Positions 50,180-63,991 of a DNA stretch of 64,000 nucleotides are shown here, one piece after another (the first letter of the stretch is position 1; each line of letters opens with the position of its first letter). The position numbers and the translations under genes are program-made. This stretch comes from Thermoleophilia bacterium. Lineage in GTDB: Bacteria > Actinomycetota > Thermoleophilia > Gaiellales > SKUG01. The notes below the pieces were generated by a model that saw nothing but the letters and a program-made list of their open reading frames with translations, searched no databases and was not told where the DNA came from. The stretch spans positions 11,754-75,753 of the forward strand of contig JAOPYQ010000028.1 of assembly GCA_025964555.1 (NCBI GenBank), given 5' to 3'.

Positions 50180-50356
50180 ATGGACATGCTGGACTACATC
50201 CTCGCGCACATCGGTTCCGACGAAGAGGGTCAGACGATGGCTGAGTACGCCGTCGTACTCGCCGTCATCACGGTCGTCGTGATCGTCGCCCTCACCGCCC
50301 TCTCCGGTGGCATCGGCGCAGCGCTCGACAAGATCACCGCCGTTCTCGGCCGCTGA
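50180..50356 (+). CDS. flp: Flp/Fap-family type IVb pilin precursor.
   Basis: 'SDEEGQTMAEYAVVLAVITVVVIVALTALSG' has the Flp processing motif G/xxxxEY followed by a hydrophobic helix. The start is either ATG 50180 or ATG 50186; the latter is 7 nt after an AGGAG. Confidence 0.85.
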   Translation: MDMLDYILAHIGSDEEGQTMAEYAVVLAVITVVVIVALTALSGGIGAALDKITAVLGR

Positions 50357-50380
50357 TCGAGCCGGCATACGGATCCCGGC

Positions 50381-50417
50381 GGCGGGGGTGGCTTCGGCCA
50401 CCCCCGCCTCTTTTTTT
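50381..50417 (+). terminator. Canonical intrinsic terminator immediately downstream of flp.
   Basis: ggcgggggtggc-ttcg-gccacccccgcc gives a 12-bp perfect GC stem with a UUCG loop, followed by tcttttttt. Confidence 0.85.
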
Positions 50418-50528
50418 GACGAAGGGTCGGACCTGGTCGGACCCTTGCATTTCGCTGCGTACACCTCGCGCCCGTTCAAGTCGCCATCGGTGTCATCCGA
50501 TGCACACCGACGAGAGAGCCGTTACCGC

Positions 50529-50936
50529 ATGGACAACCCGATCGAACAGCAGCAGGACTTCACTCCCGAGCGCGCACAGGCGACGGTCGAGTTCGCCATG
50601 ATCCTGCCGATCCTCTGCGTCATCCTCTTTGCCGTCGTCGAGTTCGGCATGGCCTTCTGGACCTACCAGCAGGTCAGTGCCGCGGCTTCCGAGGGCGCGC
50701 GCCGCGCCGCGGTGAGCCGCACCGCCGGCGACCGCACCACCCGCGCGCGAGATTCGGCGCGCGCCGCGTCGCCCGGCCTCACGGCAAGCAGCATGAACGT
50801 CACCACCACGTCGACATGGGTCGCCGGCGACCCGGTCACCGTCGTCGTCACCTATCCCGAAGACATCACGATCATGGGCAAGCAGCTCTTCCACAAGGAC
50901 CTCAAGGTCACCCGCACGATGCGCGTGGAGCAGTGA
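50529..50936 (+). CDS. TadE-like pseudopilin / pilus assembly protein.
   Basis: 'ERAQATVEFAMILPILCVILFAVVEFGMAFW' matches the TadE N-terminal motif (G...vEfAl.lP.l). 135 aa from the ATG at 50529. Confidence 0.8.
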   Translation: MDNPIEQQQDFTPERAQATVEFAMILPILCVILFAVVEFGMAFWTYQQVSAAASEGARRAAVSRTAGDRTTRARDSARAASPGLTASSMNVTTTSTWVAGDPVTVVVTYPEDITIMGKQLFHKDLKVTRTMRVEQ

Positions 50937-50943
50937 TCGGCGG

Positions 50944-51978
50944 ATGCATCGCATGAATCCCCGCACCAGTGAAGACGGCCAGGCGATCATCGTGTTCGCG
51001 ATCTTCCTCGTCGTGCTGCTCTGCTTCGTCGGTGTCATCATCGACGGCGGCATGTACTACGTGGAGCGACGTGACATGCAGGGCGTCGCGGACGCCGCCG
51101 CCCTCGCAGCCGTTCGCGAACTGCCCCGCAGCTCGGCGCAGGCGACCGCCAAAGCCAACGAGTATGCAGGCTCGCGCAACAGCGACGCCAAGGGAACGCT
51201 CCAGTCGATCCAATTCTCCGACGCCAATCGCCAGGTGACCGTCCGTGTCGGCAAGACCGGTACACAGAACTTCGGCAAGATCCTCAAGCTGGGCGCCCCT
51301 GCCATCTCCGCCTCTGCGACGGCGCGCGTGCAGATGATGGGCGCTCGCCCCGGCATGCTCCCGATCGCATTCATGCGCGACCGGTTCACGATCGGCACCA
51401 ACGAAGAGATCAAGTGGGACGATCCTGGCGGCGGCAACCGCGGCGCGATTGCGCCCGAGAAGCAGCCGAGCTGCGCTGACGCCTCCGGCGCGAACGACTT
51501 CCGGGACCTCATCATGGGCAAGGCTCACGGCGGGATCGACGCGTGTGCCACACCGATCGCCGAGACCCTCGACACTGAGCCGGGGCAGATGGCCGGCGCG
51601 ACACGCCAGGGCTTCGACGCGCGTCTCGTGGGCAACACGCAGTCGTTCTCGGACGTGTTCAAGACTGATCCGGTCACCGGTTTCCACACGATCGAGGATC
51701 CGAAGTCGCCGCGCATTGGCATCGTGCCGATCATCGAGAACTCCAACGGCACGAACGTCTGGCCGAACGGCCGGAGCGCTCCGATCAAGATCCTCGGCTA
51801 CATGCTGGTGTACATCGGCAAGGTCGGCACTACCGGCAACCCTGCCTATACCGACAACGGCAAGAGCGTCTGGATGACCCCCGTGCGTCCTTTGTTGCCG
51901 GAAGATTTTGTCGATGGTGGCTTCGTCGACTACAACGAGGCCCTTCCGTCACCGGTCGTGTTCCGCCTCTCGCAGTAG
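50944..51978 (+). CDS. TadG-like (Tad / pilus-assembly TadE/G-like N-terminus) protein, copy 1.
   Basis: 'EDGQAIIVFAIFLVVLLCFVGVIIDGGMYYVERRDMQGVADAAALAAVRE' matches the Tad N-terminal domain. About 85% identical to the next gene over the C-terminal ~220 aa. Confidence 0.75.
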   Translation: MHRMNPRTSEDGQAIIVFAIFLVVLLCFVGVIIDGGMYYVERRDMQGVADAAALAAVRELPRSSAQATAKANEYAGSRNSDAKGTLQSIQFSDANRQVTVRVGKTGTQNFGKILKLGAPAISASATARVQMMGARPGMLPIAFMRDRFTIGTNEEIKWDDPGGGNRGAIAPEKQPSCADASGANDFRDLIMGKAHGGIDACATPIAETLDTEPGQMAGATRQGFDARLVGNTQSFSDVFKTDPVTGFHTIEDPKSPRIGIVPIIENSNGTNVWPNGRSAPIKILGYMLVYIGKVGTTGNPAYTDNGKSVWMTPVRPLLPEDFVDGGFVDYNEALPSPVVFRLSQ

Positions 51979-52024
51979 CGGCGGTCCCGTCGCATGGATC
52001 CCCCCCTGACGGGGTCGTCTGGGC

Positions 52025-53047
52025 ATGGGCTCCACTCGTGAAAACGGTCAGGCGATCATCGTCTTCGTGATCTTCCTGACCGTCCTGCTGGGCTTCGTCG
52101 CGGTCCTCGTCGACGGGGGAATGTCCTACGTCGAACGCCGTGACATGCAGGGCACGGCCGACGCCGCCGCACTGGCCGCCGTGCGCGAACTCCCGACGAG
52201 CGCGACCCAGGCGAACAACCGGGCCCACGAATACGTCACGACCCGGAACGCAGACGCCAAGGGCACGCTCCGGTCGATTCAATTCTCCGACTCCAATCGC
52301 CAGGTGCGCGTCACCGTCGGCAAGAGCGGCACACAGAACTTCGGCGCCCTGCTCGGACTCGATGCCCCGGACATCGCGGCATCCGCAACCGCGCGCGTGC
52401 AGATGATGGGCGCCCGCCCCGGCATGCTGCCGATCGCCTTCATGCGCGACCGCTTCACGATCGGCCACAACGAAGAGATCAAGTGGGACGACCCAGGCGG
52501 CGGCAATCGCGGGGCAATCGCGCCCCAGAAGCAGCCGAACTGCAGCGAGGCGAGCGGCGCGAACGACTTCCGCGACCTCATCAAGGGAGACGCACATGGC
52601 GGCATCGACGCCTGCGCCACCGCCATCGCCGAAACACTCGACACCGAGCCCGGGCAGATGTCGGGCGCCACGCGCCAAGGCTTCGACGCCCGCCTGGCGG
52701 GCAACAATCAGACCTTCGATGACGTCTTCAAGATCGACCCCGTCACCGGCTTTCACACGATCGAGGACACCGACTCCCCACGGATCGGCATCGTCCCGAT
52801 CATCGAAAACGTCAACGGCACCAACAACTGGCCGAACGGCCGCAGCGCTCCCATCCGCATCCTCGGCTACATGATCGTGTACATCGGCAACACGTCCGTG
52901 CCGGGGAACCCCGCGTACACGGACAACGGGCACAGCGTCTGGGTCACGCCCGTGCGCCCGCTCCTGCCAGAGGACTTCGAGGACGGCGCGTTCGTCGACT
53001 ACAACGCGAGCCTGCCGTCACCCGTCGTCTTTCGCCTGACGGACTGA
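52025..53047 (+). CDS. TadG-like protein, copy 2 (tandem paralogue).
   Basis: 'ENGQAIIVFVIFLTVLLGFVAVLVDGGMSYVERRDMQGTADAAALAAVRE'. Long identical blocks with copy 1, e.g. 'ARVQMMGARPGMLPIAFMRDRFTIG' and 'EEIKWDDPGGGNRGAIAP'. Confidence 0.75.
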   Translation: MGSTRENGQAIIVFVIFLTVLLGFVAVLVDGGMSYVERRDMQGTADAAALAAVRELPTSATQANNRAHEYVTTRNADAKGTLRSIQFSDSNRQVRVTVGKSGTQNFGALLGLDAPDIAASATARVQMMGARPGMLPIAFMRDRFTIGHNEEIKWDDPGGGNRGAIAPQKQPNCSEASGANDFRDLIKGDAHGGIDACATAIAETLDTEPGQMSGATRQGFDARLAGNNQTFDDVFKIDPVTGFHTIEDTDSPRIGIVPIIENVNGTNNWPNGRSAPIRILGYMIVYIGNTSVPGNPAYTDNGHSVWVTPVRPLLPEDFEDGAFVDYNASLPSPVVFRLTD

Positions 53048-53227
53048 GCCGAGCACAACTTCACGAAAGCTTGACGAAAGCTTCTGTGAGGGCCCGTGTC
53101 TCCCCTTCTGAGACCGCACTCGCACCCTGTCGCGCGCCCCACTCAAGGTCGCCTACATGGATGCCGATGCGCGTCCCGGAACCCGTTCGACCGTCGTTCC
53201 GACGCACCTGAACCGCAGGAAGGCACC

Positions 53228-54001
53228 ATGAATTACACGCTTCGCAACCTCGTCGTCGCATCGCTGCTGATGCTGCTCGGCATCGTCGCAGTCATCAGCT
53301 TCATCCGAGGCGAGCGACAGGACCTCTCCCGCGGAAAGCAGGAGGTGCAGGTCTTCATCGCCGCCAAGGACATCCCGGCAGGCACGCCCGCCGACGAGCT
53401 CGAGTCCGGCGGCTTCCTGGAATCCAAGGACGTGCTGCGCGAGGACGCACCGCCGCAGGCCGTCGGCAAGATGTCGACGATCGAAGGCCTCGTGTCCAAC
53501 GAGACCGTCTACACGGGCGAGTACGTGAACTACACAGCCTTCGACAAGACGGCCGGCCTCAAGCCCACCGCGCAGATCAAGGGCAACGAGCGCCTGTTCT
53601 CGCTGCCGATCAAGGCAGCTGCGGACGCAGCCGGCCTCATTCGCGCCGGCGACCACGTCGACATCTTCGTTGCGAACGACGGCGGGTTCACCTACGTCGC
53701 CGCTCGCGACGTGGAGATCATCGAGACCCCGCAGACCCTGACTCCCGAGGGCGTCGAGGTCGAGGCAACCGCCCCCGAGGCGAACGGCGACACCAAGCTC
53801 TACGTCGTCAAGGCGACCGACCGCGAACAGGCGAACATCAAGTTCGGCCTCTCCAACGCGGACGAGTACGGCCTCATGCTCTCGCTGCGACCCGCCTCGG
53901 GCGACGCGGAGACCAAGATCCCGCCGCTCGTGCCGCAGCTCAAGATCCCGGAGAAGGAGCCCTCGGGCACCCAGCCGGCACCTGACCCCTCCATCCGCTG
54001 A
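53228..54001 (+). CDS. cpaB: Flp pilus assembly protein CpaB/RcpC (SAF-domain).
   Basis: N-terminal TM 'LVVASLLMLLGIVAVISFI', 'VQVFIAAKDIPAGTP' (SAF-like), and 'IRAGDHVDIF'. Confidence 0.75.
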   Translation: MNYTLRNLVVASLLMLLGIVAVISFIRGERQDLSRGKQEVQVFIAAKDIPAGTPADELESGGFLESKDVLREDAPPQAVGKMSTIEGLVSNETVYTGEYVNYTAFDKTAGLKPTAQIKGNERLFSLPIKAAADAAGLIRAGDHVDIFVANDGGFTYVAARDVEIIETPQTLTPEGVEVEATAPEANGDTKLYVVKATDREQANIKFGLSNADEYGLMLSLRPASGDAETKIPPLVPQLKIPEKEPSGTQPAPDPSIR

Positions 54002-54053: not shown

Positions 54054-55388
54054 ATGAGCGACCAGCCGATCAGGATCTTCATCTCAGGCGCATGCGCCGG
54101 TCTCGCCGAAGCGCGCGACGCCCTCGCCGGTCACCGCGACATCGAGCTCGTCGGCACCGCGTCGGAGCCGTCCAAGGCGGGATCCAAGCTCGCCTCCACC
54201 GGAGCCCAGGTCATCCTGCACGCACTCCAGCGTCCCGACTCGGTCCCGACCGAGGAGATCGCCAAGATCCGCGAGCACACCTCAGCCCCGATCATCCTGC
54301 TCGTGACGCGCTCCACGTCGACGCTGCTGGACGAGGCCGTGGAACTTGGGCTCAACGACGTCATGCTGCTGCCGCAGCTCACGGACAACCTCGTGTTCAC
54401 CGTCAAGAAGGCGCACACGATCGGCTCGATGACCGGCTCCGGTGGCGCCGGCCAGCGACGCTCGGGTGACAGCTGCAAGGTCATCACGCTGTTCTCGCCG
54501 AAGGGCGGCGTCGGCAAGACGGTGCTCGCCACGAGCATGGCAGCGATGTACGCGAAGAAGCTCAAGAAGCGTACGCTGCTCATCGACCTGGACCTGCAGT
54601 TCGGCGACGCGGCGATCATGCTCGGAGCCGATCCGCGCGCAACGATCCTCGACCTCGTCATGAGCCACGGCGACCTGGACAGCGACAAGCTCGCTGGCTT
54701 CGTCACGCACCACGAGAGCGGCCTGCACCTGCTGCCCGCTCCGCTGCGACCCGAGGATGACGCGCTCGTCACCGATGATCGTCTCGCGAGCGTGCTCTCG
54801 GCTGCCAAGCAGTCCTACGACATCATCCTCATCGACACGGCACCGAACTTCACGTCCACCGTCCTCACCGCGCTCGATCGCACCGACGAGCTCATGCTGG
54901 TCGCGAGTCTCGAGGCGACATCGCTCAAGAGCGTGAAGGTCTGCCTGCAGACGCTCGAGATGCTGCACTATCCGCTCGAGAAGTGCCACGTGGTGCTCAA
55001 TCGCGCGGACACCAAGGTCGGCCTCAAGAAGGACCAGGTCGAAACGGCGCTCGGCAAGTCGATCCGTTTCGGCATCCCGTCCAACCGAGCCGTGCCGATG
55101 GCCATCAACCGCGGCGTCCCGGTCGTCATGACGGACCCGAAGGCGGATGTCACCCGTGCGATCCGCGAGCTGTGTGTCGCGTTCAGCCCGGAGGCGTCGA
55201 GCGTCACCGAGCAGGCGGCCTCCACCGCGAAGCTGAGCCGCCGCGATCGCAAGCGCATCGCCGACGAGACCCAGCGCGCCCAGCTGCGCGATGCGGACCT
55301 CGCCGGAGCGTCCGCGCCTGCACCGGGCGCAGCCCACTCACCCGACCTGGACCTCGAGTTCGATTTCGGCGACGAAGCCGCAGCCTGA
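54054..55388 (+). CDS. tadZ: TadZ/CpaE: receiver-like N-domain + ParA/MinD-type ATPase.
   Basis: The N-terminal ~120 aa are receiver-like. Deviant Walker A 'ITLFSPKGGVGKTVLATSMA'. 'DIILIDTAP'. Confidence 0.85.
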   Translation: MSDQPIRIFISGACAGLAEARDALAGHRDIELVGTASEPSKAGSKLASTGAQVILHALQRPDSVPTEEIAKIREHTSAPIILLVTRSTSTLLDEAVELGLNDVMLLPQLTDNLVFTVKKAHTIGSMTGSGGAGQRRSGDSCKVITLFSPKGGVGKTVLATSMAAMYAKKLKKRTLLIDLDLQFGDAAIMLGADPRATILDLVMSHGDLDSDKLAGFVTHHESGLHLLPAPLRPEDDALVTDDRLASVLSAAKQSYDIILIDTAPNFTSTVLTALDRTDELMLVASLEATSLKSVKVCLQTLEMLHYPLEKCHVVLNRADTKVGLKKDQVETALGKSIRFGIPSNRAVPMAINRGVPVVMTDPKADVTRAIRELCVAFSPEASSVTEQAASTAKLSRRDRKRIADETQRAQLRDADLAGASAPAPGAAHSPDLDLEFDFGDEAAA

Positions 55389-55426: not shown

Positions 55427-56896
55427 ATGTCACTGCACCGACGACTCCAGTCACTCAACGTCGAGGCGCCTGCTCCCAGCAGCAACAGCACCTCCTCGTC
55501 CCAGTCATCCAGCGAGACTCGTGACGAAGCTCACGATCCGTTCGTCGAACTCAAGACGAAGATCCACAAGCTGGTGATCCAGTCGGTCGGTCCTGCCCTG
55601 TTCCGCTCCGAGCGCGCGGAAGGCGCTGCGACGAGCCGTCAGGAACTCGAGCATGCCGTGCACGATGCCGTGAACCAGTCGATCGAGGACGACGCCACGC
55701 CGCTCACGCGCCAGGAGCGCAACCAGCTGATCCAGGAGATCACCGACGACATCCTGGGTTACGGACCGATTGATCCATTCCTCCGCGACGATTCCGTCTC
55801 GGAAGTCATGGTCAACAACCACTACACGGTCTACATCGAGAAGAAGGGCAAGCTGACGCTGACCAATGCCCGCTTCGTCGACGAGCAGCACCTCGAGCGC
55901 ATCATCGACAAGATCGTCTCCCAGATCGGCCGGCGCATCGATGAATCGAGCCCGATGGTCGACGCACGCCTCCCCGACGGCTCGCGAGTGAACGCGATCA
56001 TCCCGCCGCTCGCGGTCCGCGGCTCGGCGCTCACCATCCGAAAGTTCAAGAAGGACCCGCTCAAGATGGAGGACCTGATCAAGTTCGGGACCCTCTCCCC
56101 CAAGTCGGCGCAGTTCCTCGAGCTGTGCGTCAAGGGCGCGCTCAACGTCGTCATCAGCGGCGGTACCGGCTCGGGCAAGACGACCACGCTGAACGTCCTG
56201 TCGGCCGCGATCCCCGCCGAGGAGCGGATCATCACGGTCGAGGACGCGGCGGAGGTCCAGCTCAAGCAGGAGCACGTCATCACGCTCGAGAGTCGCCCGG
56301 CGAACATCGAGGGCAAGGGCCAGGTCTCCATCCGCGACCTCGTGCGCAACACGCTGCGCATGCGTCCCGACCGCATCGTCGTCGGCGAGTGCCGTGGCGC
56401 CGAGACGGTCGACATGCTCCAGGCGATGAACACCGGCCATGACGGGTCGATGACCACCATCCACGCGAACAACCCGCGTGAAGCCCTCAGCCGCGTCGAG
56501 ACGCTCGTGCTGACCGCCGGCGTCGACCTGCCGCTGCGCGCCATCCGCGAGCAGGCTGCCGGCGCCATCGACCTCATCGTGCAGGTCTCGCGCCTGGTCG
56601 ACGGCTCGCGCCGCATCACCCACATCACCGAGGTCGGCAAGATGGAGGGCGAGACGATCACCCTCCAGGACATCTTCATTGCCAAGCCCGATGAAGACGG
56701 CGCGGCATCCGGCCAGACGTCACGCCTGCTCGGACCGCTCACGATGACCGGTATCAAGCCTGGCTTCCTCGACAAGCTCGCGCAGAACGGCGTGACCATT
56801 CCGGTCTCGTTCTTCGCGGGTGACGACGGCGCCGGCGGCCCTGGCGGTTCGCAGGGCACGTTCGGCAGCAACTCGAGCTTCCGGAGGAGCGCGTGA
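55427..56896 (+). CDS. tadA: TadA/CpaF secretion ATPase (T2SS/T4P GspE-family).
   Basis: Walker A 'ISGGTGSGKTTTLNVLS', 'RIITVEDAAE', 'RMRPDRIVVGECRG' and 'GHDGSMTTIHAN' are CpaF signatures. Confidence 0.93.
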   Translation: MSLHRRLQSLNVEAPAPSSNSTSSSQSSSETRDEAHDPFVELKTKIHKLVIQSVGPALFRSERAEGAATSRQELEHAVHDAVNQSIEDDATPLTRQERNQLIQEITDDILGYGPIDPFLRDDSVSEVMVNNHYTVYIEKKGKLTLTNARFVDEQHLERIIDKIVSQIGRRIDESSPMVDARLPDGSRVNAIIPPLAVRGSALTIRKFKKDPLKMEDLIKFGTLSPKSAQFLELCVKGALNVVISGGTGSGKTTTLNVLSAAIPAEERIITVEDAAEVQLKQEHVITLESRPANIEGKGQVSIRDLVRNTLRMRPDRIVVGECRGAETVDMLQAMNTGHDGSMTTIHANNPREALSRVETLVLTAGVDLPLRAIREQAAGAIDLIVQVSRLVDGSRRITHITEVGKMEGETITLQDIFIAKPDEDGAASGQTSRLLGPLTMTGIKPGFLDKLAQNGVTIPVSFFAGDDGAGGPGGSQGTFGSNSSFRRSA

Positions 56897-58869
56897 GCTT
56901 CCGCACCACACGATTGGCGACGACCTTCGTCGTGGCGCTTGCCGTCGCGGTCGCGGGCTCGTGCGCATCTGCCCTCGCGGCCGATCGCGACTCCGCGAAC
57001 GGCGTGTCGATCACGGCCGTGGATTCTTCGCGATTCCCGATCGTGCGCGTTGCGTTCGGCGCGGACGAGGTCAAGGGCAAGGAGCCGGACCTCAACTTCT
57101 TCGAGGGCAGCACTGCGCTGCCTGCGGCGTCGCTGTACCGCGGCGAGATCGGCGAGTTCGAGGACGCGCGACACACCGACGTCATGCTCGTCGTCGACAC
57201 GTCGCTCTCGATGGGCACAGGGTCGCGCATCGATGATGCGATCGATGCTGCCAACCAGCTCATCGATCGCGCTCGCTCCGGCGACCGCATCGGCCTCGCG
57301 ACCTTCGGCGGCAGCGCCGCTGTCGTCGTCAAGCCGACGGGCGACCTGGAGCGCGTCCGAAGCGCTCTCCGTGGTATCGAGCTGTCGAACCGGACGACGA
57401 TGTTCGACGCAGTCAGCATGAGCGCTCGCGCATTCGGTTCTAAGATGGACTCCAACCGCGCGATCGTCCTGCTGTCCGACGGCACCGACGTCGGGAGCGT
57501 GGAGACCCTCGATGAAGCGGCTGGCGAGGCGCTCAAGGCGCAGGCTCCGATCTTCGCCATCGCGATCCGCGAGAACGCTGACGACCAGCCCAAGGACCTT
57601 GCGGAGCTGGGCAACGGCACCGGCGGCGAGCTGCACACCGTGGTGGGTACTGCCGGTCTCGAGACGCTGTTCTCGGAGCTCGGTCGACGCATCCTGCAGC
57701 CCTACTGGGTCGAGTACAAGTCGAGCGCGCCGCAGGGCAGCGCGCTGCAGTTCGGGATCGCCATCGGCGACCGCCGCAGCGACATCGTCGTGAAGCGTTC
57801 GTTCCGCGGAATCCCATCCGCCAGTGCCGCAGGGCGCGCGGGTGGCGGCGACTTGCCGAATTCGACGCCTGCCAAGCCGCTGCTGCCGGTCCCCGGCGGG
57901 ATGGTGGGAGTGCTCGTCGCCTCGTTCCCGTTCGCGCTGCTCATCTTCAGCTTCGTCTGGATGATGCTCCAGCGCCGCACGAAGCCCGACATCCTCGCCC
58001 GCCTGGATCTCTACACGACACGCGCAACGGCTGACACCGTGGTGCGTCGCGAGGAGCAGCAGTCGCTGTTCCGCCGGCTCGGGTCGCCGATCATGAAGCT
58101 CAGCGAGTCGTTCCTCGGCGGCTCCGCATTCTTCGAGCGGACACGCAAGCGCGCCGAGCAGGCGTCGATCGCGGTCAAGCCGAGCGAGATGTTCACGGCG
58201 ATGCTCGCCGCAGGAGCACTGGGCGCGCTTGTCGGTCTCATGCTCGGCTCGATCGTGTTCACCGGCCTCATCGGCGTGCCAGCCTTCTACCTCCCGATGT
58301 TCTGGCTGCGCTTCAAGGCGCGCAAGCGACGCAACATGTTCGACGACCAGCTGCCGGATGTGTTGCAGGGCATCTCCTCCTCGCTCAAGGCGGGCCACTC
58401 CTTCAACCAGGCGCTCAACGCCATGATCAAGGATTCGCCCAACCCGACCGCCGAGGAGTTCTCGCGCGTGATGACCGAAGCCCGCCTCGGCATGCCGCTC
58501 GAGGACGCGCTCCAGCACATGGCTGACCGCATGGGCAGCGCCGACTTCGAGTTCGCGGTGACGACCGTCAACATCCAGCGCACCGTGGGTGGTTCACTCG
58601 CGGACATCCTCCAGATGGTCGGCGACACGGTTCGCAACCGTCAGCAGTTCCGCAAGAAGGTCAAGGCGCTCAGCTCCATGGGCACGATGAGCGCCTACGT
58701 CCTGCTCGGCATGCCGATCTTCATCGGCCTCGCGCTGACCGTCATCAACGCGAGCTACATGGCTCCGCTGTTCACCACCGACACAGGCCACTTGCTGCTG
58801 GTCGTCGGAGCGTTCTCGATGACGCTCGGCTACTTCGCATGCATGAAGGTCGTCGCGATCAAGATCTAG
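56893..58869 (+). CDS. tadB: Fusion protein: signal peptide + extracytoplasmic von Willebrand A domain + TadB (T2SS-F family) platform domain.
   Basis: The GTG at 56893 overlaps the tadA TGA and follows a GGAGGAG SD. Signal peptide 'TTFVVALAVAVAGSCASALA'. vWA MIDAS 'VVDTSLSMG' (DxSxS) ... 'AIVLLSDGTD'. TM 'VGVLVASFPFALLIFSFVWMML'. T2SSF domain 'LPDVLQGISSSLKAGHSFNQAL...LGMPLEDALQHMADRMGS'. Confidence 0.8.
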   Translation: MSFRTTRLATTFVVALAVAVAGSCASALAADRDSANGVSITAVDSSRFPIVRVAFGADEVKGKEPDLNFFEGSTALPAASLYRGEIGEFEDARHTDVMLVVDTSLSMGTGSRIDDAIDAANQLIDRARSGDRIGLATFGGSAAVVVKPTGDLERVRSALRGIELSNRTTMFDAVSMSARAFGSKMDSNRAIVLLSDGTDVGSVETLDEAAGEALKAQAPIFAIAIRENADDQPKDLAELGNGTGGELHTVVGTAGLETLFSELGRRILQPYWVEYKSSAPQGSALQFGIAIGDRRSDIVVKRSFRGIPSASAAGRAGGGDLPNSTPAKPLLPVPGGMVGVLVASFPFALLIFSFVWMMLQRRTKPDILARLDLYTTRATADTVVRREEQQSLFRRLGSPIMKLSESFLGGSAFFERTRKRAEQASIAVKPSEMFTAMLAAGALGALVGLMLGSIVFTGLIGVPAFYLPMFWLRFKARKRRNMFDDQLPDVLQGISSSLKAGHSFNQALNAMIKDSPNPTAEEFSRVMTEARLGMPLEDALQHMADRMGSADFEFAVTTVNIQRTVGGSLADILQMVGDTVRNRQQFRKKVKALSSMGTMSAYVLLGMPIFIGLALTVINASYMAPLFTTDTGHLLLVVGAFSMTLGYFACMKVVAIKI

Positions 58870-58879
58870 GGGTTCGTCA

Positions 58880-59785
58880 ATGTTGCTGCTCATCATCGGC
58901 ATGGTCGCCTTCGCAGGTGGCGTGTACATCGCGATGGAGAACGCCTCGGTCTCGCGCAAGCAGATCCAGGCCAACACCAAGCGCGCGAGCTCCTACGCCG
59001 TGATCGATCCCGGCAACGAGGAGATCTCCAAGAGCGCCAACGAGCGACTCATCCAGCCGCTGATGGAGCGCTTCAGCGAGATGGCCGTGCGCATGAGCCC
59101 GGCCGGCAAGCGCATGGAATTGCAGCGCAAGCTTCGCAACGCCGGCACGAACGTCAAGCCGCAGACGTTGCTCGCGTTCAAGGGCGGCGTGACGATAGGC
59201 GGCGTCGTCGTGATCATCATGGGCGCCGGAGCCGGCAGCATGCCGATCCTCGGCGTCGGCATGCTGTTGTTCATCATCGGTTTCCTGGGATCGGACTTCT
59301 GGCTCAACTCCCGCATCCGCGGACGACGCGACGAGATGGAGCGCGCCCTGCCGGACACGCTCGACCTGCTGACGGTGAGCGTCGAGGCCGGCCTCGGCTT
59401 CGATGCCGCGGTCTCGAAGGTCTGCGAGAAGATGCACGGACCACTCATCGAAGAGTTCGACGTCGTGGCTCGCGAGATCCGCGTCGGCGAGACGCGACGC
59501 CAGGCGCTTCGCAACATGGGCGACCGGGTGGCGAGCGACGACCTGCGCTCGTTCGCACGCTCGATCATCCAGGCCGACGAGATGGGTACTTCGCTGGGGC
59601 GCACGCTCAAGGTGCAGGCCGACGACATGCGCATCCATCGTCAGCTCGCGGCCGAGGAGAAGGCCATGAAGGCCCCGGTCAAGATGCTGTTCCCGACCGT
59701 CCTCTTCATCTTCCCGGCAATGTTCATCGTCATCCTCGGACCAGCGTTCCTGAACATCATGGCGTCGCTCGCCGAAGCCACCTGA
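58880..59785 (+). CDS. tadC: TadC (T2SS-F family) platform protein.
   Basis: 'ALPDTLDLLTVSVEAGLGFDAAVSKV', 'VGETRRQALRNMGDRV' and 'EEKAMKAPVKMLFPTVLFIFPAMFIVILGPA' are typical of TadC. Confidence 0.85.
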   Translation: MLLLIIGMVAFAGGVYIAMENASVSRKQIQANTKRASSYAVIDPGNEEISKSANERLIQPLMERFSEMAVRMSPAGKRMELQRKLRNAGTNVKPQTLLAFKGGVTIGGVVVIIMGAGAGSMPILGVGMLLFIIGFLGSDFWLNSRIRGRRDEMERALPDTLDLLTVSVEAGLGFDAAVSKVCEKMHGPLIEEFDVVAREIRVGETRRQALRNMGDRVASDDLRSFARSIIQADEMGTSLGRTLKVQADDMRIHRQLAAEEKAMKAPVKMLFPTVLFIFPAMFIVILGPAFLNIMASLAEAT

Positions 59786-59807
59786 TCGACCACCGAAAAC
59801 TGTGCAC

Positions 59808-59840
59808 GTGCGGGGCGTCTTCGGGCGCCCCGCGCCTCTT
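59808..59840 (+). terminator. Terminator-like hairpin after tadC.
   Basis: gtgcggggcgtc-ttcg-ggcgccccgcgc gives about 12 bp including two G:U pairs, with a UUCG loop (59820-59823), followed by ctcttc. It lies 23 nt after the tadC TGA. Confidence 0.5.
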
Positions 59841-60008
59841 CAGTGGCTAGGACCCCATGGCCCATAGAAGGTCAGTTCGCGAACGGTTCCGCGCACGGAA
59901 CGGATCTCCTTGGTTCCTTACAGGATGCTCACTCGCATCGCCTCAAGTCGCCGCTCCCGGGGGTCGATGCAGCAAGGGTTCGGGTGTGAACGAAGGGTGT
60001 TTTCTGCC

Positions 60009-60971
60009 ATGAAGCGATGGCTCACAACAAGCAATGTGCTCGCAACGATCGCGATGCTGTGCGCATTGACTGGCACGTCGATCGCGGCAGCCTGGGCGGC
60101 ACCGCTGCTCACCGGTGCGAACGTCCGGAACGGGACGCTGACCGGCGTCGACGTGAAGGACCTGAGCCTCTCGTCCACGGACTTCACTTCCGCAGCGACA
60201 ACTCAGCTCCGTGCGCAAACCGGTCCGGTCGGCGACAAGGGACCTGTGGGGCCCACCGGAAGCAAGGGCGCCAAGGGGCGCAAGGGAACCGCCGGGGTTG
60301 ATGCCGCGAAGGCGTACAGCTACATCACAGCTGACGACACAACGTCCTTCGTGAGCCCCAAGACCGGCAGCCTGTTGAATCCGGATCCGGTCAAGGGCAA
60401 CTGCGTCAATGCTGGCACCGTGACCATCATGAACTTTGCATCGAACTGCACGCCGTTTGCGCCCTACTTCCCACACTGGAAGTACGACTGCGATGCCGCC
60501 CTTTCCCGGTACTGCGGATCGAGCAAGGTCAAGGGCAGTGCCGGCGCCGGCGCCACGCTGTTGCAGACGAATTCGAATGGCGTGGTCGGATTTACTGGCG
60601 ACGAGAACGGAAGCTTCGTGTCGTTGATGGGTCCTGGGAACGTTCTCGTGACCGCCTCGTTGACGCTCATGCATCCGGAAGAGGATCTCTTCCACTCTCG
60701 AATCGCGTGTCAGCCTCAGGTCCGGCGAAGCAACACCGCCGACGCATACACCAACCTTGGGGTTCCGACGATCGCATCGAGCGCCGACTCCGACGAACTC
60801 GTGCACATTACGGTGACGGGCGCCGCGCGCTTCATCCCCCCAACCAACGAGTCCGCGGACTACGACTTTCAGGTCACCTGTCAAATGCTTGACGAATACT
60901 CCAGTGGTACCGAGGTCGACAACTGGTTCTTCATCTCCGGAAATGCAACTGCGACCACGACGGAGCTCTGA
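60009..60971 (+). CDS. Collagen-like (Gly-X-Y) secreted or surface protein, paralogue 1.
   Basis: Signal/anchor 'MKRWLTTSNVLATIAMLCALTGTSIAAAWA', the 'LTGVDVKDLSL' motif, 8 uninterrupted G-X-Y triplets 'GPVGDKGPVGPTGSKGAKGRKGTAG' (nt 60222-60296), then a ~220-aa C-terminal domain. Confidence 0.7.
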   Translation: MKRWLTTSNVLATIAMLCALTGTSIAAAWAAPLLTGANVRNGTLTGVDVKDLSLSSTDFTSAATTQLRAQTGPVGDKGPVGPTGSKGAKGRKGTAGVDAAKAYSYITADDTTSFVSPKTGSLLNPDPVKGNCVNAGTVTIMNFASNCTPFAPYFPHWKYDCDAALSRYCGSSKVKGSAGAGATLLQTNSNGVVGFTGDENGSFVSLMGPGNVLVTASLTLMHPEEDLFHSRIACQPQVRRSNTADAYTNLGVPTIASSADSDELVHITVTGAARFIPPTNESADYDFQVTCQMLDEYSSGTEVDNWFFISGNATATTTEL

Positions 60972-60973
60972 TC

Positions 60974-61918
60974 GTGAAGAACTCATCCTTCCTCATTCGC
61001 CGACACGTTACGTATGCGAACGTCGTGTCGATCATCGTCATCATTGCGGCGACCGCGACATCTGCGTTCGCGGCCACCATGTACACGGGCAGGAACATCA
61101 AGGACTCCTCGCTGACCGGCGTCGATTTCAAGGATCGTTCAATCGACTCCAAGGACATCGCGGCCACGTCGCGGAAGTCGATGACCGGCTTCGCCGGTGC
61201 CACCGGCGCCACGGGCGATAAGGGTGGAACAGGCCCTCAGGGGGATACGGGCGATGCTGGCGACATGGGCAAGCAGGCGCATTCGCTTGTGCGCTTCGCA
61301 TCCTTCCACTCGCCGTTTCTACGCACCAACCTGGCTGCGCTGCCGAATGACCCACTGGCTCAACCGAACCCCGGCACTGTAGATCCCTGGGACGGAGCGA
61401 CGTATCCGACCTATGACACGGGCGAGCCTCGTTCGTATCCCAATGTCACAGAGAATTTCCCGACGAATGATTTCGAGACCACGATCGATAACTCCGATCA
61501 GGTCCTCCTGCAGCTCACTGGTCAGAACGAGACGACGACTGGCACCATCCGTCCGACTGCTGGTGGCCTGCTGAATGCAACTGCAACGATCACTGTGCTT
61601 CACACCAATGATGGCGAGACGAATTTCGCTGGCGGACGAGCGTTGCACAATCGACTTCGCTGCACACTGCGGTTCGCGAACAACGATAACGCTCTTGGGT
61701 CTGGATCACCTTCAATGGGAGCGGTCGAGTGGATCTCGTCCCGACGCCAGCACAAGGTGTACACGATCACCATGACTGGATCCGAGAAGATCCCATCCGA
61801 CGCTTCGGCCAACTACAACGTCGGCGTGTCCTGCGCCGACGTGGACTACACGGGCTCGAATCACTGGAAGTACATCGCCGGCAACATCACCGCCCACGCC
61901 ATCTACGTCGGCCCCTGA
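60974..61918 (+). CDS. Collagen-like secreted or surface protein, paralogue 2.
   Basis: The GTG lies 2 nt after the upstream stop. 'RRHVTYANVVSIIVIIAATATSAFA', 'LTGVDFKDRSI', and 9 G-X-Y triplets 'GFAGATGATGDKGGTGPQGDTGDAGDMG' (nt 61187-61270). Confidence 0.7.
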   Translation: MKNSSFLIRRHVTYANVVSIIVIIAATATSAFAATMYTGRNIKDSSLTGVDFKDRSIDSKDIAATSRKSMTGFAGATGATGDKGGTGPQGDTGDAGDMGKQAHSLVRFASFHSPFLRTNLAALPNDPLAQPNPGTVDPWDGATYPTYDTGEPRSYPNVTENFPTNDFETTIDNSDQVLLQLTGQNETTTGTIRPTAGGLLNATATITVLHTNDGETNFAGGRALHNRLRCTLRFANNDNALGSGSPSMGAVEWISSRRQHKVYTITMTGSEKIPSDASANYNVGVSCADVDYTGSNHWKYIAGNITAHAIYVGP

Positions 61919-61936
61919 GCAGGACGGATTCGAATC

Positions 61937-62857
61937 ATGCGACCTCGCATCACCTACGCAAATACGATGGCCACTATCGCACTGTTTCTCGCGCTTGGAG
62001 GCACGGCGCTGGCAGCGGTAACGCTGACCAGCAGGAACGTGGCTGACAAGTCGCTGACGAGCGTCGACGTCAAATCTGCTTCACTTGGCGTTGCCGATCT
62101 GACGCTTGCTGCGAAGAACGCGCTCCGCGGAGCGAAAGGTGCCACTGGGCGGGCAGGCAGCGTCGGCTCCACGGGCACGACGGGCGCCGACGGTGCCCAA
62201 GGCCTTCGCGGGTCGGCCGCCTTCATGACTTCTGCATTCGCTTACCGTGACACTGGTCTGGTGACGAATCGGGCTAACGCGTCGCCCCCGAACAACAACG
62301 GCGGTTCCGGAAAGAACTGGGACGATCCAGCTTACGCCAGCACGGGTTGTCCTGGCGGCACGTGTCCCCAGATCCGCGGCGCCGGCGCGTATCAGGCAAT
62401 CAATCTCAACGCCTCATGGCAGCCCATGGTGACGCTCACAGGAATGTCAGGAAGCGATCCCACTCGCTCTCCCGATACGTTGCTCAACCTCCCGTTCTCC
62501 GATGCCTTCCTGAACGCGACCGCGTCCCTCACGTTCATGCATCGCGCGATTGGCGAGGACTTCTCGAACAACACAGGAGGGACGCCTTTGCATGGCCGCC
62601 TCGAGTGCGCGCTGTTTTATGGCACCTCCGCTGACCCGAACGCACTGACGACGTCGGCGGGAGTGCTCGCTCAGGCGTCAGGCGGTTATGACGGCATTCA
62701 GCATGAACTTACGAACGTCTCCCTGAATGGAAACGGGCAGGGGCTCGTGGCGGGAACCCAGTACAACGTCACTGTTAAGTGTCGTGATGCGGATTACACC
62801 GGCGACACCCAGTGGCAGCTCGCACGAGGGAACCTGACGGCGCTCGCGTCGCGCTGA
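61937..62857 (+). CDS. Collagen-like secreted or surface protein, paralogue 3.
   Basis: 'MRPRITYANTMATIALFLALGGTALAA', 'LTSVDVKSASL', and 9 G-X-Y triplets 'GAKGATGRAGSVGSTGTTGADGAQGLRG' (nt 62129-62212). Confidence 0.7.
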   Translation: MRPRITYANTMATIALFLALGGTALAAVTLTSRNVADKSLTSVDVKSASLGVADLTLAAKNALRGAKGATGRAGSVGSTGTTGADGAQGLRGSAAFMTSAFAYRDTGLVTNRANASPPNNNGGSGKNWDDPAYASTGCPGGTCPQIRGAGAYQAINLNASWQPMVTLTGMSGSDPTRSPDTLLNLPFSDAFLNATASLTFMHRAIGEDFSNNTGGTPLHGRLECALFYGTSADPNALTTSAGVLAQASGGYDGIQHELTNVSLNGNGQGLVAGTQYNVTVKCRDADYTGDTQWQLARGNLTALASR

Positions 62858-62903: not shown

Positions 62904-62974
62904 GGCGCCGTGGCCGAGTGGTTAGGCAGAGGCCTGCAAAGCCTCGTACACCGGTTCGAATCCGGTCGGCGCCT
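62904..62974 (+). tRNA. tRNA-Cys (anticodon GCA), 71 nt, no encoded CCA.
   Basis: Folded by hand. Acceptor GGCGCCG/CGGCGCC, D arm GCC(G)...(A)GGC, anticodon stem GAGGC/GCCTC with loop CTGCAAA (GCA), 4-nt variable loop, T arm ACCGG-TTCGAAT-CCGGT, and discriminator U as expected for tRNA-Cys. Confidence 0.9.
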
Positions 62975-63991
62975 TCAGTGCTCGAGCGTGTCGAGCGTGA
63001 CGACCTGGTCGCCGCGCACGATGCCGTAGAGCTCCGCGAGCGTGGCTGGAGCGTCGACGCGATCGTCGCTGCCGTGCTGTTCGAGCCAGGCGTTGGCCTC
63101 GTCCTCCGGAAGCTCGGTGAACTCGAGGTGCGCCCAGCTGCGGCCGGGGCGGGCGACGGCATCGTGGAGGCGGTCGATCGGCTCGTTGGTGGTGACGAGC
63201 ACGGAGACGTTCGAACCTTGTCCGAGCATGCCGTCGGTAAGGTTGAGCAGGCGTGAGAGCGCCTGGCCTGCGCTGACGCGGGCGTCGGAGCTGATGAGCT
63301 CGCCAGCATCCTCAAGCACGATGAGCTTCGCGCGCGAGTGCGTGGGCGCGGGTGTCGACGACATTGACGCGTAGTGCACCGGGGGCATCACGCCAGGTCC
63401 GTGCCCCATCGTGTCGGCGAACACGACATTGACCGCGCTGCCATCCGCGCCGTCCCAGTGCTCGTCGACATCGTGGCCGAACAGCACCTGCACGAGGTAC
63501 GAGGCGCGCTCGCCGAGGAAGACTTCGGGGTCGACGATCACATGGATGTCGACGTGATCGCGCCACGCATGCGCGAGCGCGCGAAGCGCAGTGGTCTTGC
63601 CGGTACCGGGCGCGCCGCGCCAAAGGGCGATGCCGCGCGCCGAATCGGGCGGGTTGTCCATGATCTTGGCGAGTGCATCGCTGAGCGGGCCGACGTAGTT
63701 GCCGGCGATCTCGTCCCACGCGGGCGCGTACAGGCGCCGCACCATCGGCTCAGGCCCGTGCTCGGTGAGTGTCCAGAACCAGATCGGCACCCTGGGGTCC
63801 TCCGGGCGCTTCTCGGCCTGCAGGCGCTCGCACAGTCGGTCGAGCAGGTCGTCGGCAGTGGCGGCGTCGTCGGTCGCGACGCGCACGTGACCATTGCCGT
63901 AGTGCCACGAGACCTCCACGAGCTCGCGCTCCTGAACCGATCCCACGAGGAGCAGCTGCCCCATCGAGTCGATGCTCGTCTCCACCTTCAT
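62975..63991 (-). CDS. AAA+ ATPase (classical AAA-type) with a ~115-aa N-terminal domain of unknown function.
   Basis: Walker A 'GAPGTGKTTALRAL', Walker B 'LIVLEDAGELI', sensor-1 'VLVTTNEP', and 'ARPGRSWAHLEF' (Arg-finger region). The stop codon (62975-62977) directly abuts the 3' end of tRNA-Cys. Confidence 0.75.
   Translation of the reverse strand: MKVETSIDSMGQLLLVGSVQERELVEVSWHYGNGHVRVATDDAATADDLLDRLCERLQAEKRPEDPRVPIWFWTLTEHGPEPMVRRLYAPAWDEIAGNYVGPLSDALAKIMDNPPDSARGIALWRGAPGTGKTTALRALAHAWRDHVDIHVIVDPEVFLGERASYLVQVLFGHDVDEHWDGADGSAVNVVFADTMGHGPGVMPPVHYASMSSTPAPTHSRAKLIVLEDAGELISSDARVSAGQALSRLLNLTDGMLGQGSNVSVLVTTNEPIDRLHDAVARPGRSWAHLEFTELPEDEANAWLEQHGSDDRVDAPATLAELYGIVRGDQVVTLDTLEH

Follow-up and report, generated by a model that had tools for sequence, protein, structure and literature searches.

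Three collagen-like genes lie between a tad locus and a tRNA-Cys gene

We analyzed a window of 64,000 nucleotides from a Thermoleophilia bacterium (assembly GCA_025964555.1, contig JAOPYQ010000028.1, positions 11,754 to 75,753 of the forward strand), in which three consecutive plus-strand genes with short collagen-like runs lie between a complete Flp/Tad locus and a tRNA-Cys gene (Table 1). We refer to the first, second and third gene of the trio as ColA, ColB and ColC, and to the related loci that we compared with the window as L001 to L022. The list of open reading frames (ORFs) confirmed the coordinates that a first-pass annotation had assigned to the three genes, together with the gaps of 2 and 18 nt between them. 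ColA and ColB are identical to proteins tagged JWL76_1703 and JWL76_1704 in a Thermoleophilia metagenome-assembled genome. Four orthologous loci keep the start context ATGAAGCG, which supports the ATG at 60009 as the first codon of ColA.

The three proteins share a signal-like N-terminus, SLTGxDVK-type repeats, 8–9 Gly-X-Y triplets and a C-terminal domain of about 215 aa, which we call the head. In pairwise alignments, full-length identity among ColA, ColB and ColC is 29–32%, and the similarity is significant when only the heads are compared (B–C, E = 1e-17; A–B, 2e-8; A–C, 9e-4), with the ColB head nearest to the ColC head. All of the motifs that had been quoted from the three proteins are present in the alignment (SLTGVDVK; (V/A)TA(S/T)(L/I)T..H; H.R(I/L).C; Y(D/N)(F/V).V.C; GN.TA). 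The proteins had also been described as rich in N-x-S/T sequons; however, we found no enrichment compared to composition-matched shuffles (P = 0.06–0.43), and the sequon richness is a composition effect. The C-terminal ends are ...TATTTEL, ...AIYVGP and ...TALASR, none of which is an LPXTG sequence. The trio is thus a real and well-defined feature, and its architecture had been described correctly.

Table 1. Positions of the collagen-like genes, their parts and neighboring features in the window, and of selected features at related loci (positions within the respective locus).
Feature	Position	Strand	Description
Flp pilin	50186-50350	+	G/QTMAEY prepilin site
TadE	50307-50936	+	
Two TadG-like genes	50944-53047		
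RcpC	53096-54001		
TadZ	54054-55388		
TadA	55427-56896		
VWA-TadB	56893-58869	+	658 aa; N-terminal VWA domain led by signal peptide
TadC	58880-59785		~300 aa
Hairpin	59808-59835	+	12-bp G+C, after tadC; -32.9 kcal/mol, z = -2.2; no U-tract
Upstream block TTCCTTACAGGATGCTC	59914-59930	+	conserved at all five triplet loci (alignment)
ColA	60009-60971	+	320 aa; ORF list; ATG start; residues 1-33 signal-like N-terminus, 34-71 SLTGVDVK repeats, 72-96 Gly-X-Y, 99-320 head
ColA Gly-X-Y run	60222-60296	+	GPV GDK GPV GPT GSK GAK GRK GTA G
ColA head	60303-60968	+	predicted TNF/C1q-like (AlphaFold2 model and Foldseek); Cys-rich insert
ColB	60974-61918	+	314 aa; GTG start, 2 nt past ColA stop; ColA-like architecture, 9 Gly-X-Y triplets at residues 72-99
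ColB Gly-X-Y run	61187-61270	+	GFA GAT GAT GDK GGT GPQ GDT GDA GDM G
ColB head	61277-61915	+	predicted TNF/C1q-like by homology to ColC and ColA heads
ColC	61937-62857	+	306 aa; 18 nt past ColB; Gly-X-Y at residues 65-92, head at 94-306
ColC Gly-X-Y run	62129-62212	+	GAK GAT GRA GSV GST GTT GAD GAQ GLR G
ColC head	62216-62854	+	predicted TNF/C1q-like (AlphaFold2 model and Foldseek); C224 and C282 family-invariant
tRNA-Cys(GCA)	62904-62974	+	downstream of the cassette
DUF5925 and AAA/STAND-like ATPase gene	62975-63991	-	converges on the cassette
tRNA-Cys, L001	7789-7859		
tRNA-Cys, L015	3423-3494		
tRNA-Cys, L003	11109-11179		
tRNA-Cys, L014	3487-3558		
tRNA-Cys, L018	5170-5243		
GNAT acetyltransferase gene, L018	8150-8647		
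GNAT acetyltransferase gene, L019	2428-2925		
GNAT acetyltransferase gene, L020	6546-7037		
GNAT acetyltransferase gene, L022	1342-1839		
GNAT acetyltransferase gene, L003	11657-12118		
Lysyl-oxidase family gene (PF01186), L003	18222-19292		~8 kb downstream of the triplet

The heads are predicted to be TNF/C1q-like jelly rolls on short collagen-like stalks

We modeled ColC and ColA with AlphaFold2, using alignments of 58 and 41 homologues, respectively. Both models consist of an N-terminal helix, poorly ordered repeats, an extended Gly-X-Y segment and an all-beta sandwich. The ColC model has a mean predicted local distance difference test score (pLDDT) of 83, with most of the head above 90; the ColA model has a mean pLDDT of 72, rising above 80 in the head core, and its Cys-rich insert is modeled with low confidence. 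When we compared the models with the PDB by Foldseek, both matched TNF ligands (TL1A, 4-1BBL, RANKL, CD40L and TNF), BxpB of Bacillus anthracis (8d02) and ExsFA of B. cereus (7r5i), the N-terminal TNF-like lectin domain of Burkholderia BC2L-C and cyanophage fibre tips, with probabilities near 1.0, E-values of about 1e-4 and target-normalised template-modeling (TM) scores of 0.4–0.55. In BFVD, the best matches were giant-virus proteins that combine collagen with a C1q/TNF-like domain, and actinophage minor tail proteins. From these matches we assign the modeled heads to the TNF/C1q-like jelly rolls at the superfamily level. This assignment is made by fold, from two independent models, and not by a Pfam sequence match. 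The sequence libraries that had been proposed as a check on the C-terminal domains were silent: profiles of Pfam, NCBIfam and the PDB gave no match outside the collagen run, and the sequence-profile search of the PDB matched the collagen segments and nothing else. Given the fold class and the attached collagen run, the head would be expected to form a trimer about a three-fold axis. The models and the Foldseek matches thus bear out the layout originally proposed for these proteins, which is an N-terminal hydrophobic segment, a short collagen stalk and a globular head of the trimer-forming type.

The Gly-X-Y runs were found at exactly the positions first reported, and all three are uninterrupted (8 triplets in ColA, 9 in ColB and 9 in ColC). 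Each makes up a stalk of about 27 residues, or about 8 nm, with 0–3 prolines (none in ColC), and Thr is common at the Y position of the triplets. In the alignment of 58 homologues, the Gly columns show little or no variation and the X and Y columns vary freely, which is the signature that would be expected of a triple-helix constraint. The number of triplets (A8/B9/C9) is constant at all five loci that carry the ordered trio, except that the B chain of L001 has one more triplet, so the conservation of the run that the earlier reading called for is present in both respects. The Pfam Collagen model (PF01391) gave 20.3, 18.5 and 21.8 bits for the three proteins and the gathering threshold of 27.2 was not reached, because the model spans 60 residues and the run does not extend that far; PF01391 is annotated in some relatives whose runs are longer. 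The proteins therefore have the uninterrupted repeat of this family and not its gathering score. Since the run is very short and proline-poor, the stalk is probably held together by the head, and perhaps also by the N-terminal region.

The N-terminal module belongs to a wider actinobacterial family

The N-terminal part of the trio is one example of a family-wide module with the consensus (R/H)-L-T-Y-A-N-V-M-A-T-I-A-V-F-I-A-L-G-G-T-S-Y-A-A, followed by 1–4 decapeptides of the SLTGxDVKxG type and then by a collagen run (median of 11 triplets across the family). ColC has the best copy of this module among the trio (RITYANTMATIALFLALGGTALAA). The module is present in 106 of the 223 proteins fetched and is carried by at least 100 clusters at 50% identity with differing C-terminal domains, and no Pfam or NCBIfam model covers it. 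Most members are 200–240 aa long with small, unrelated heads, are encoded by single or scattered genes, and come from Thermoleophilaceae, Solirubrobacterales and Nocardioides. The near-invariant segment LTYANVMATIAVFIALGGTSYAA, together with SLTGxDVK decapeptides and a short collagen run, was seen in P0071, P0082, P0089, P0113, P0147 and about 100 other proteins, and at L004–L013; diverse small C-terminal domains follow it.

The first-pass annotation had called the N-terminus of the trio an anchor. A hydrophobic N-terminus is indeed present; however, its anchoring role is put in doubt by its shape, which consists of an h-region of about 11 residues, then a helix-breaking GG or TG, then A-x-A, and which fits a cleavable Sec signal peptide. 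The segment is much better conserved than ordinary signal peptides are, and this unusual conservation leaves room for two alternatives: the segment may stay on the protein as a type II anchor, or it may serve as a sorting signal of a dedicated kind.

We considered several other identities for this region. A prepilin or pseudopilin reading was rejected as the hydrophobic stretch precedes the GG/A-x-A site and there is no G/xxxxE(Y/F) site. Membership in TadE, TadF or TadG was rejected as none of the three proteins matches the TadE (PF07811) or Tad (PF13400) domain. The SLTGxDVK region resembles pentapeptide repeats, but has no match to a Pfam Pentapeptide model at E up to 1, and we regard this as a resemblance only. 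Residues 27–93 of ColC gave a weak match to the NCBIfam model HxsA4 (His-Xaa-Ser repeat; E = 0.0036, 18 bits against a cut-off of 55), which we regard as an artefact caused by the low complexity of the repeats and the collagen run.

The same ordered triplet recurs after tadC in related genomes

Full-length relatives of the trio are rare: we found about 13 per paralogue at 53–78% identity, and about 45 clusters at 50% identity among 1.8 billion representatives. Wherever the contig is long enough, that is in L001/L002, L003, L014 and L015, an ordered A-B-C triplet follows VWA-TadB and TadC, and the genes of the window and these loci are orthologous position by position. The intergenic gaps at L001, L003, L014 and L015 are 1–5 and 17–22 nt. 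At these loci, orthologues at the first triplet position are 53–77% identical to ColA, orthologues at the second position are 50–70% identical to ColB, and TadC identity among the five triplet loci goes down to 80% (Table 2). Because the same ordered triplet recurs at independent Thermoleophilia loci, the cassette appears to be old, resident and vertically retained in one Thermoleophilia clade. The genes had been proposed to be horizontally acquired, and the interval from tadC to tRNA-Cys had been named as the place to look for their presence or absence among relatives; the cassette was present in every relative that we retrieved, after tadC at all of the triplet loci and with no integrase or attachment (att) repeat, which speaks against that proposal.

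More distant relatives have a different organization. In L018 and L019, whose TadC is 74% identical, there are two genes only, one A-like and one C-like. A duplicated C-like gene is the probable origin of B, given that no other pair of heads is as close as B and C. In L018 the collagen genes lie 3.3 kb from tadC, with an opposite-strand histidine kinase gene, tRNA-Cys, a DUF6458 gene and another gene in between. L020 has no tad gene in the fetched 5.5 kb upstream or 10 kb downstream, L022 has none in the 10 kb downstream (its contig ends just 5' of the gene), and none of the ten wider-family loci (L004–L013) has a tad gene within 10 kb. Among these distant relatives a GNAT acetyltransferase gene is a more constant neighbor than the tad genes: it lies directly 3' of the collagen-like genes in L018–L020 and L022, and in L003 it lies about 0.7 kb downstream, past tRNA-Cys and one small gene. 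Our genome scan returned only relatives that share the N-terminal module, none of them beside tad. For the metagenome search, a 14-sequence head alignment was too divergent to give a search pattern, and a closer alignment returned two loci only, one of which was already in our set.

Table 2. Identity (%) between proteins encoded in the window and at four loci with the ordered triplet.
Locus	TadC	VWA-TadB	DUF5925	ColA	ColB	ColC
L014	98 (99-aa fragment)	not on contig	85	77	70	73
L001	88	81	78	59	54	54
L015	90	78	81	56	54	53
L003	80	69	absent	53	50	56

The cassette diversifies as discrete types within a syntenic region

The trio had been described as rapidly diversifying, and the comparison with related loci agrees. 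The Col proteins are 50–77% identical across these loci as compared to 69–98% for the flanking Tad and DUF5925 proteins. Between cassette types, the Col genes have a nonsynonymous divergence (dN) of 0.32–0.53 as compared to 0.08–0.25 for the flanks, and a dN/dS ratio (omega) of 0.45–0.60 as compared to about 0.2. In contrast, L001 and L015 carry the same cassette type, and between these two loci the Col genes have diverged no more than the flanks (78–81% identity, omega 0.12–0.22). All three Col genes switch type together. The excess divergence of the Col genes is thus not clock-like, and the cassettes fall into discrete types. Between the window and L014, nucleotide identity is 93% at the 3' end of tadC, 75–78% in the cassette and 85% in the DUF5925 gene, and the fraction of identical codons at identical residues is 49–58% in the cassette as compared to 83% and 71% in the flanks. 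In the window, we located the tRNA-Cys gene past ColC, as first reported. L014 and L003 share this arrangement, whereas in L001 and L015 the tRNA gene precedes the cassette.

To the first-pass annotation the genes lay in a GC-poor patch, with estimates of 45–65% GC against 70–75% in core genes. A sliding-window calculation shows that the patch is real and that the difference is smaller than those estimates: the genes have a GC content of 0.594–0.625 as compared to the window mean of 0.692, and the lowest 400-nt window is at 0.557. The trio is nonetheless the lowest-GC 3-kb stretch in the 64 kb, about 2.9 standard deviations below the mean. GC content at third codon positions (GC3) is 0.70–0.77 in the Col genes of the window as compared to 0.83–0.90 in neighboring genes. 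In L001, L003 and L014, Col GC3 is neighbor-like (0.89–0.92), and L015 shows a slight dip. The low GC3 therefore seems specific to the copy in this genome (and slightly to L015), which may have either relaxed codon usage or an allele from a lower-GC donor.

A repeat search and the annotation of neighboring genes upheld the earlier observation that no integrase or tRNA-derived direct repeat is present. We found no second copy of the tRNA 3' end at up to 3 mismatches, no flanking att-like repeats, and no integrase or transposase among the neighboring genes in the window or the related loci. Because of the discrete types, the drop in identity to L014, the change in the side of tRNA-Cys, the GC3 pattern and the lack of integrase and att repeats, we propose that the segment around tRNA-Cys is variable and that the trio is a resident cassette within it, probably exchanged by homologous recombination among relatives.

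Neighboring genes and transcription signals

The first-pass annotation had placed a terminator after tadC. We found a G+C hairpin at that position, but it lacks a U-tract and the terminator scan was blank, so that it is best called a candidate terminator, and a likely one. Comparable hairpins lie 5' of the cassette in L001, L014 and L015, with U-tracts in L001 and L015. About 80–95 nt 5' of the ColA start, the conserved block TTCCTTACAGGATGCTC is a candidate promoter -10 region (CAGGAT in the window, CATAAT or CACAAT in relatives). A consensus sigma-70 scan detected no promoter, and a terminator scan detected no relevant terminator. Since the hairpin and the conserved block both lie between tadC and ColA, the trio is most likely a transcription unit of its own and not the tail of the tad operon. 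We rejected a riboswitch, or any other known RNA, in the region 5' of the trio: at gathering scores Rfam matched tRNA only, and matches in 59700–60100 at E up to 10 were noise.

In the tad locus, the Flp pilin gene (MLDYILAHIGSDEEGQTMAEYAVV...) overlaps the longest TadE-like ORF, and for this reason TadE probably starts further downstream than the ORF list suggests. Pfam TadE/Tad-type domains are present in the genes at 50307–53047. The VWA-TadB fusion is kept in L001, L003, L015 and L018, and because a signal peptide precedes the VWA domain, this domain is predicted to lie outside the cell. VWA or I domains, such as the integrin I domains and those of von Willebrand factor, are classic collagen binders in animals, and by that analogy an external VWA domain on a Tad platform protein beside collagen-like genes is suggestive.

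Between tadC and the GNAT gene, gene content is in flux. The flanking, promoter-like sequence of tRNA-Cys differs between its two positions, and the tRNA itself has two base changes that go with the arrangement and apparently fall in its acceptor stem. The DUF5925 ATPase gene is present in L001, L014 and L015 and absent from L003 and L018. L003 has a lysyl-oxidase family gene downstream of the triplet; lysyl oxidases cross-link animal collagens, and the proximity is probably coincidental.

Discussion

The trio as short exported trimeric fibres

We propose, with moderate confidence, that ColA, ColB and ColC are exported and assemble into short trimeric mini-collagen fibres, which act in ligand binding at the surface or in the matrix, as adhesins or lectins. 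In this model, the three genes would be co-transcribed from their own upstream region and probably translationally coupled. Each chain would be exported through Sec by its basic and hydrophobic N-terminal segment, which would then be removed by cleavage at A-x-A or remain in place as a type II membrane anchor. The C-terminal heads, whose TNF/C1q-like fold is predicted by the models, would trimerise as their fold class suggests and set the register of the chains. From there the 8–9 Gly-X-Y triplets would zip in the C-to-N direction into a putative triple-helical stalk of about 8 nm, with the conserved SLTGxDVK repeats as the presumed base of the stalk and the variable head surface available to bind an external ligand.

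Several points weigh against this proposal. The fold matches appear to be at the superfamily level only (TM-scores of 0.4–0.55 at 8–16% identity), and Pfam TNF (PF00229) and C1q (PF00386) have zero matches at E up to 1. The very short and proline-poor stalk may be of marginal stability. In the trio we found no LPXTG, S-layer-homology or lipobox motif that would retain the proteins at the surface; cleavage of the predicted signal peptide may simply set the proteins free, and if the segment is retained, a stalk of about 8 nm would be too short to span a Gram-positive wall. Finally, the adhesin or lectin role is drawn by analogy from BclA, BC2L-C, phage fibre tips and the collagen-like proteins of Pasteuria (PCLs).

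A refinement that does not contradict the proposal of trimeric fibres is an obligate A:B:C heterotrimer with one chain from each gene, in which three different heads would select the chains and set their stagger, as in complement C1q. We regard this as a tentative possibility. It would suit the finding that five independent loci each retain a gene from all three old paralogue groups and never depart from the order A-B-C, the tight spacing, which suggests coupled and equimolar synthesis, and the joint type switching of all three genes. The collagen segments also align in one register, with A consistently one triplet shorter than B and C, and there are organizational precedents in the A, B and C chains of C1q and in the group 1-2-3 triplets of Pasteuria. 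However, the chains show no consistent charge complementarity, as the net charges of the Gly-X-Y runs vary by locus, and the two-gene lineage of L018/L019 would need an A2B-type assembly or homotrimers. Co-retention would be expected equally of three homotrimers with different specificities, as with BclA1-3 of Clostridioides difficile, and the prokaryotic collagen-like proteins characterised so far have all been reported as homotrimers (PMC8968730). The fuller version of this idea, a natural bacterial ABC heterotrimeric collagen of co-translated chains in which three heads set both stoichiometry and a one-residue stagger, and hence a prokaryotic counterpart of C1q, is more speculative and we consider it rather doubtful. 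If it were true, the triplet gene organization would be a general solution for heterotrimeric, fast-evolving adhesion fibres, and the trio would register its chains in a compact and natural way, through three distinct TNF-like heads that hold a very short collagen of 27 residues; registered heterotrimers are a standing problem in collagen engineering.

The first-pass annotation had also suggested that the trio works together with the adjacent Tad pilus. As an explanation in its own right, this would make the trio an accessory of the Tad (Flp) pilus whose fibre docks on the TadB VWA domain or on the pilus to form one adhesion apparatus, and docking of the stalk on the predicted external VWA domain is a further possibility in itself. 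The trio does come immediately after VWA-TadB and TadC at five loci, the VWA domain should be extracellular by its position after a signal peptide, and collagen binding is a classic property of such domains. We nevertheless consider a pilus accessory unlikely, as the association so far is one of adjacency among related genomes, and since the linked genomes are all close relatives, shared descent explains it. A hairpin and a separate conserved block stand between tadC and ColA, joined in L001 and L015 by a tRNA gene and a clear terminator; the linkage fades in distant relatives, with intervening genes in L018 and no tad gene in the surveyed flanks of L020 or of the ten wider-family loci. The trio also lacks the TadE/TadG N-terminal domain and the G/xxxxEY site that Flp has. 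Low GC and GC3, an adjoining tRNA gene that is on different sides in different lineages, and synonymous divergence from the nearest relative that is far higher in the cassette than in the flanks could instead point to a recently acquired foreign island inserted at tRNA-Cys. This is quite improbable: the same ordered triplet, orthologous by position and in the same neighborhood, was seen on every related contig that we found, its homologues do not extend beyond this bacterial class, it is not accompanied by an integrase, a transposase or a direct repeat derived from the tRNA, and the data are better explained if a diverged allele replaced a resident cassette or if codon usage relaxed locally. 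An origin from tail-fibre or receptor-binding protein genes of a prophage or tailocin, of which the trio would be remnants, is very improbable. In fold, the predicted heads are similar to the minor tail proteins of actinophages and to cyanophage fibre tips, and there are weak matches to PHROGs tail-fibre families, but these matches are confined to the collagen segment (residues ~48–101) at E of 1e-7 or weaker, zero phage genes lie nearby in the window or at any related locus, and each protein has a predicted signal peptide of its own, which virion proteins lack.

Comparison with known systems

We found no paper on collagen-like proteins of Thermoleophilia in our literature search. The trio has its closest protein architectures in BclA with BxpB, in C1q and in ectodysplasin-A. 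Ectodysplasin-A has a type II membrane anchor, a short collagen run and a TNF domain, a topology like that of the trio. BclA and BxpB/ExsFA likewise have a bacterial collagen-like region followed by a C-terminal trimerising jelly roll of the TNF/C1q type, and Thr-rich Y positions. The collagen-like region of BclA is long, strain-variable and GPT-rich, whereas the stalk of the trio has 8–9 triplets and 0–3 prolines. The trio also differs in having a predicted Sec-type signal or anchor and no exosporium-targeting motif, and its heads do not match that of BclA at the sequence level (in the PDB profile search, only the collagen segment produced the match to the BclA chain 1wck). The class Thermoleophilia is not known to form spores, and the trio does not belong to the BclA-type exosporium glycoproteins.

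The C1q/TNF superfamily shares the module order of an N-terminal anchor or signal, a short collagen stalk and a C-terminal jelly-roll head. The A, B and C genes of C1q lie in tandem. Its three paralogous chains form a heterotrimer through their heads (PMC5807628, PMC5153404). Unlike the trio, these proteins are eukaryotic, and we detected no sequence similarity outside Gly-X-Y; the relationship, which is at the level of the predicted fold, may be convergent or very ancient. The streptococcal adhesins Scl1/Scl2 and Lcl of Legionella are also bacterial surface collagen-like adhesins, with weak NCBIfam matches through the Gly-X-Y run. The globular trimerisation domain of Scl is N-terminal and not a jelly roll, whereas the head of the trio is C-terminal and predicted to be TNF-like. 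The scores are 14–23 bits against cut-offs of 325–500 for these adhesin models. With cut-offs of 325–400 for the LPXTG-anchored adhesins (Scl1/Scl2; NF038329, NF038330) and no LPXTG, the trio falls outside that group. The unnamed actinobacterial family has the same N-terminal module, SLTGxDVK repeats and short collagen run as the trio, but its members are mostly 200–240 aa long with unrelated small heads, and none is beside tad. This large unannotated family, defined by a strikingly conserved export or anchor module, and the conserved ordered triplet, maybe a natural heterotrimer, are what we consider worth following. The cassette is also a clear example, in an uncultured soil lineage, of a surface-protein cassette that splits into discrete types within an otherwise syntenic region, and bacterial collagen-like proteins are in use as adhesins, spore fibres and biomaterial scaffolds.

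In gene organization, the closest described system is that of the PCL triplets of Pasteuria ramosa, an endospore-forming Bacillota parasite with about 13 triplets and 36–45 or more collagen-like genes per genome. According to a recent genome paper, groups 1, 2 and 3 contribute one gene apiece to each triplet, in a fixed order and orientation (McElroy et al. 2011, cited in PMC13233619, bioRxiv 10.1101/2025.03.22.644704), the triplets are attachment determinants and hot spots of diversity and gene replacement, and their organization is described as seeming unique to P. ramosa. The trio resembles them in having three genes from three paralogue groups in a fixed order and orientation at a hot spot of diversity. 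In contrast to Pasteuria, it is a single triplet at a fixed chromosomal site in free-living, uncultured Thermoleophilia, and the likeness is one of gene organization. The Thermoleophilia trio would be a second and probably independent case of the triplet organization, and would extend the ordered collagen-like gene triplet from Pasteuria ramosa to free-living Actinomycetota; by architecture, it belongs with the bacterial collagen-like proteins bearing heads of the C1q/TNF type.

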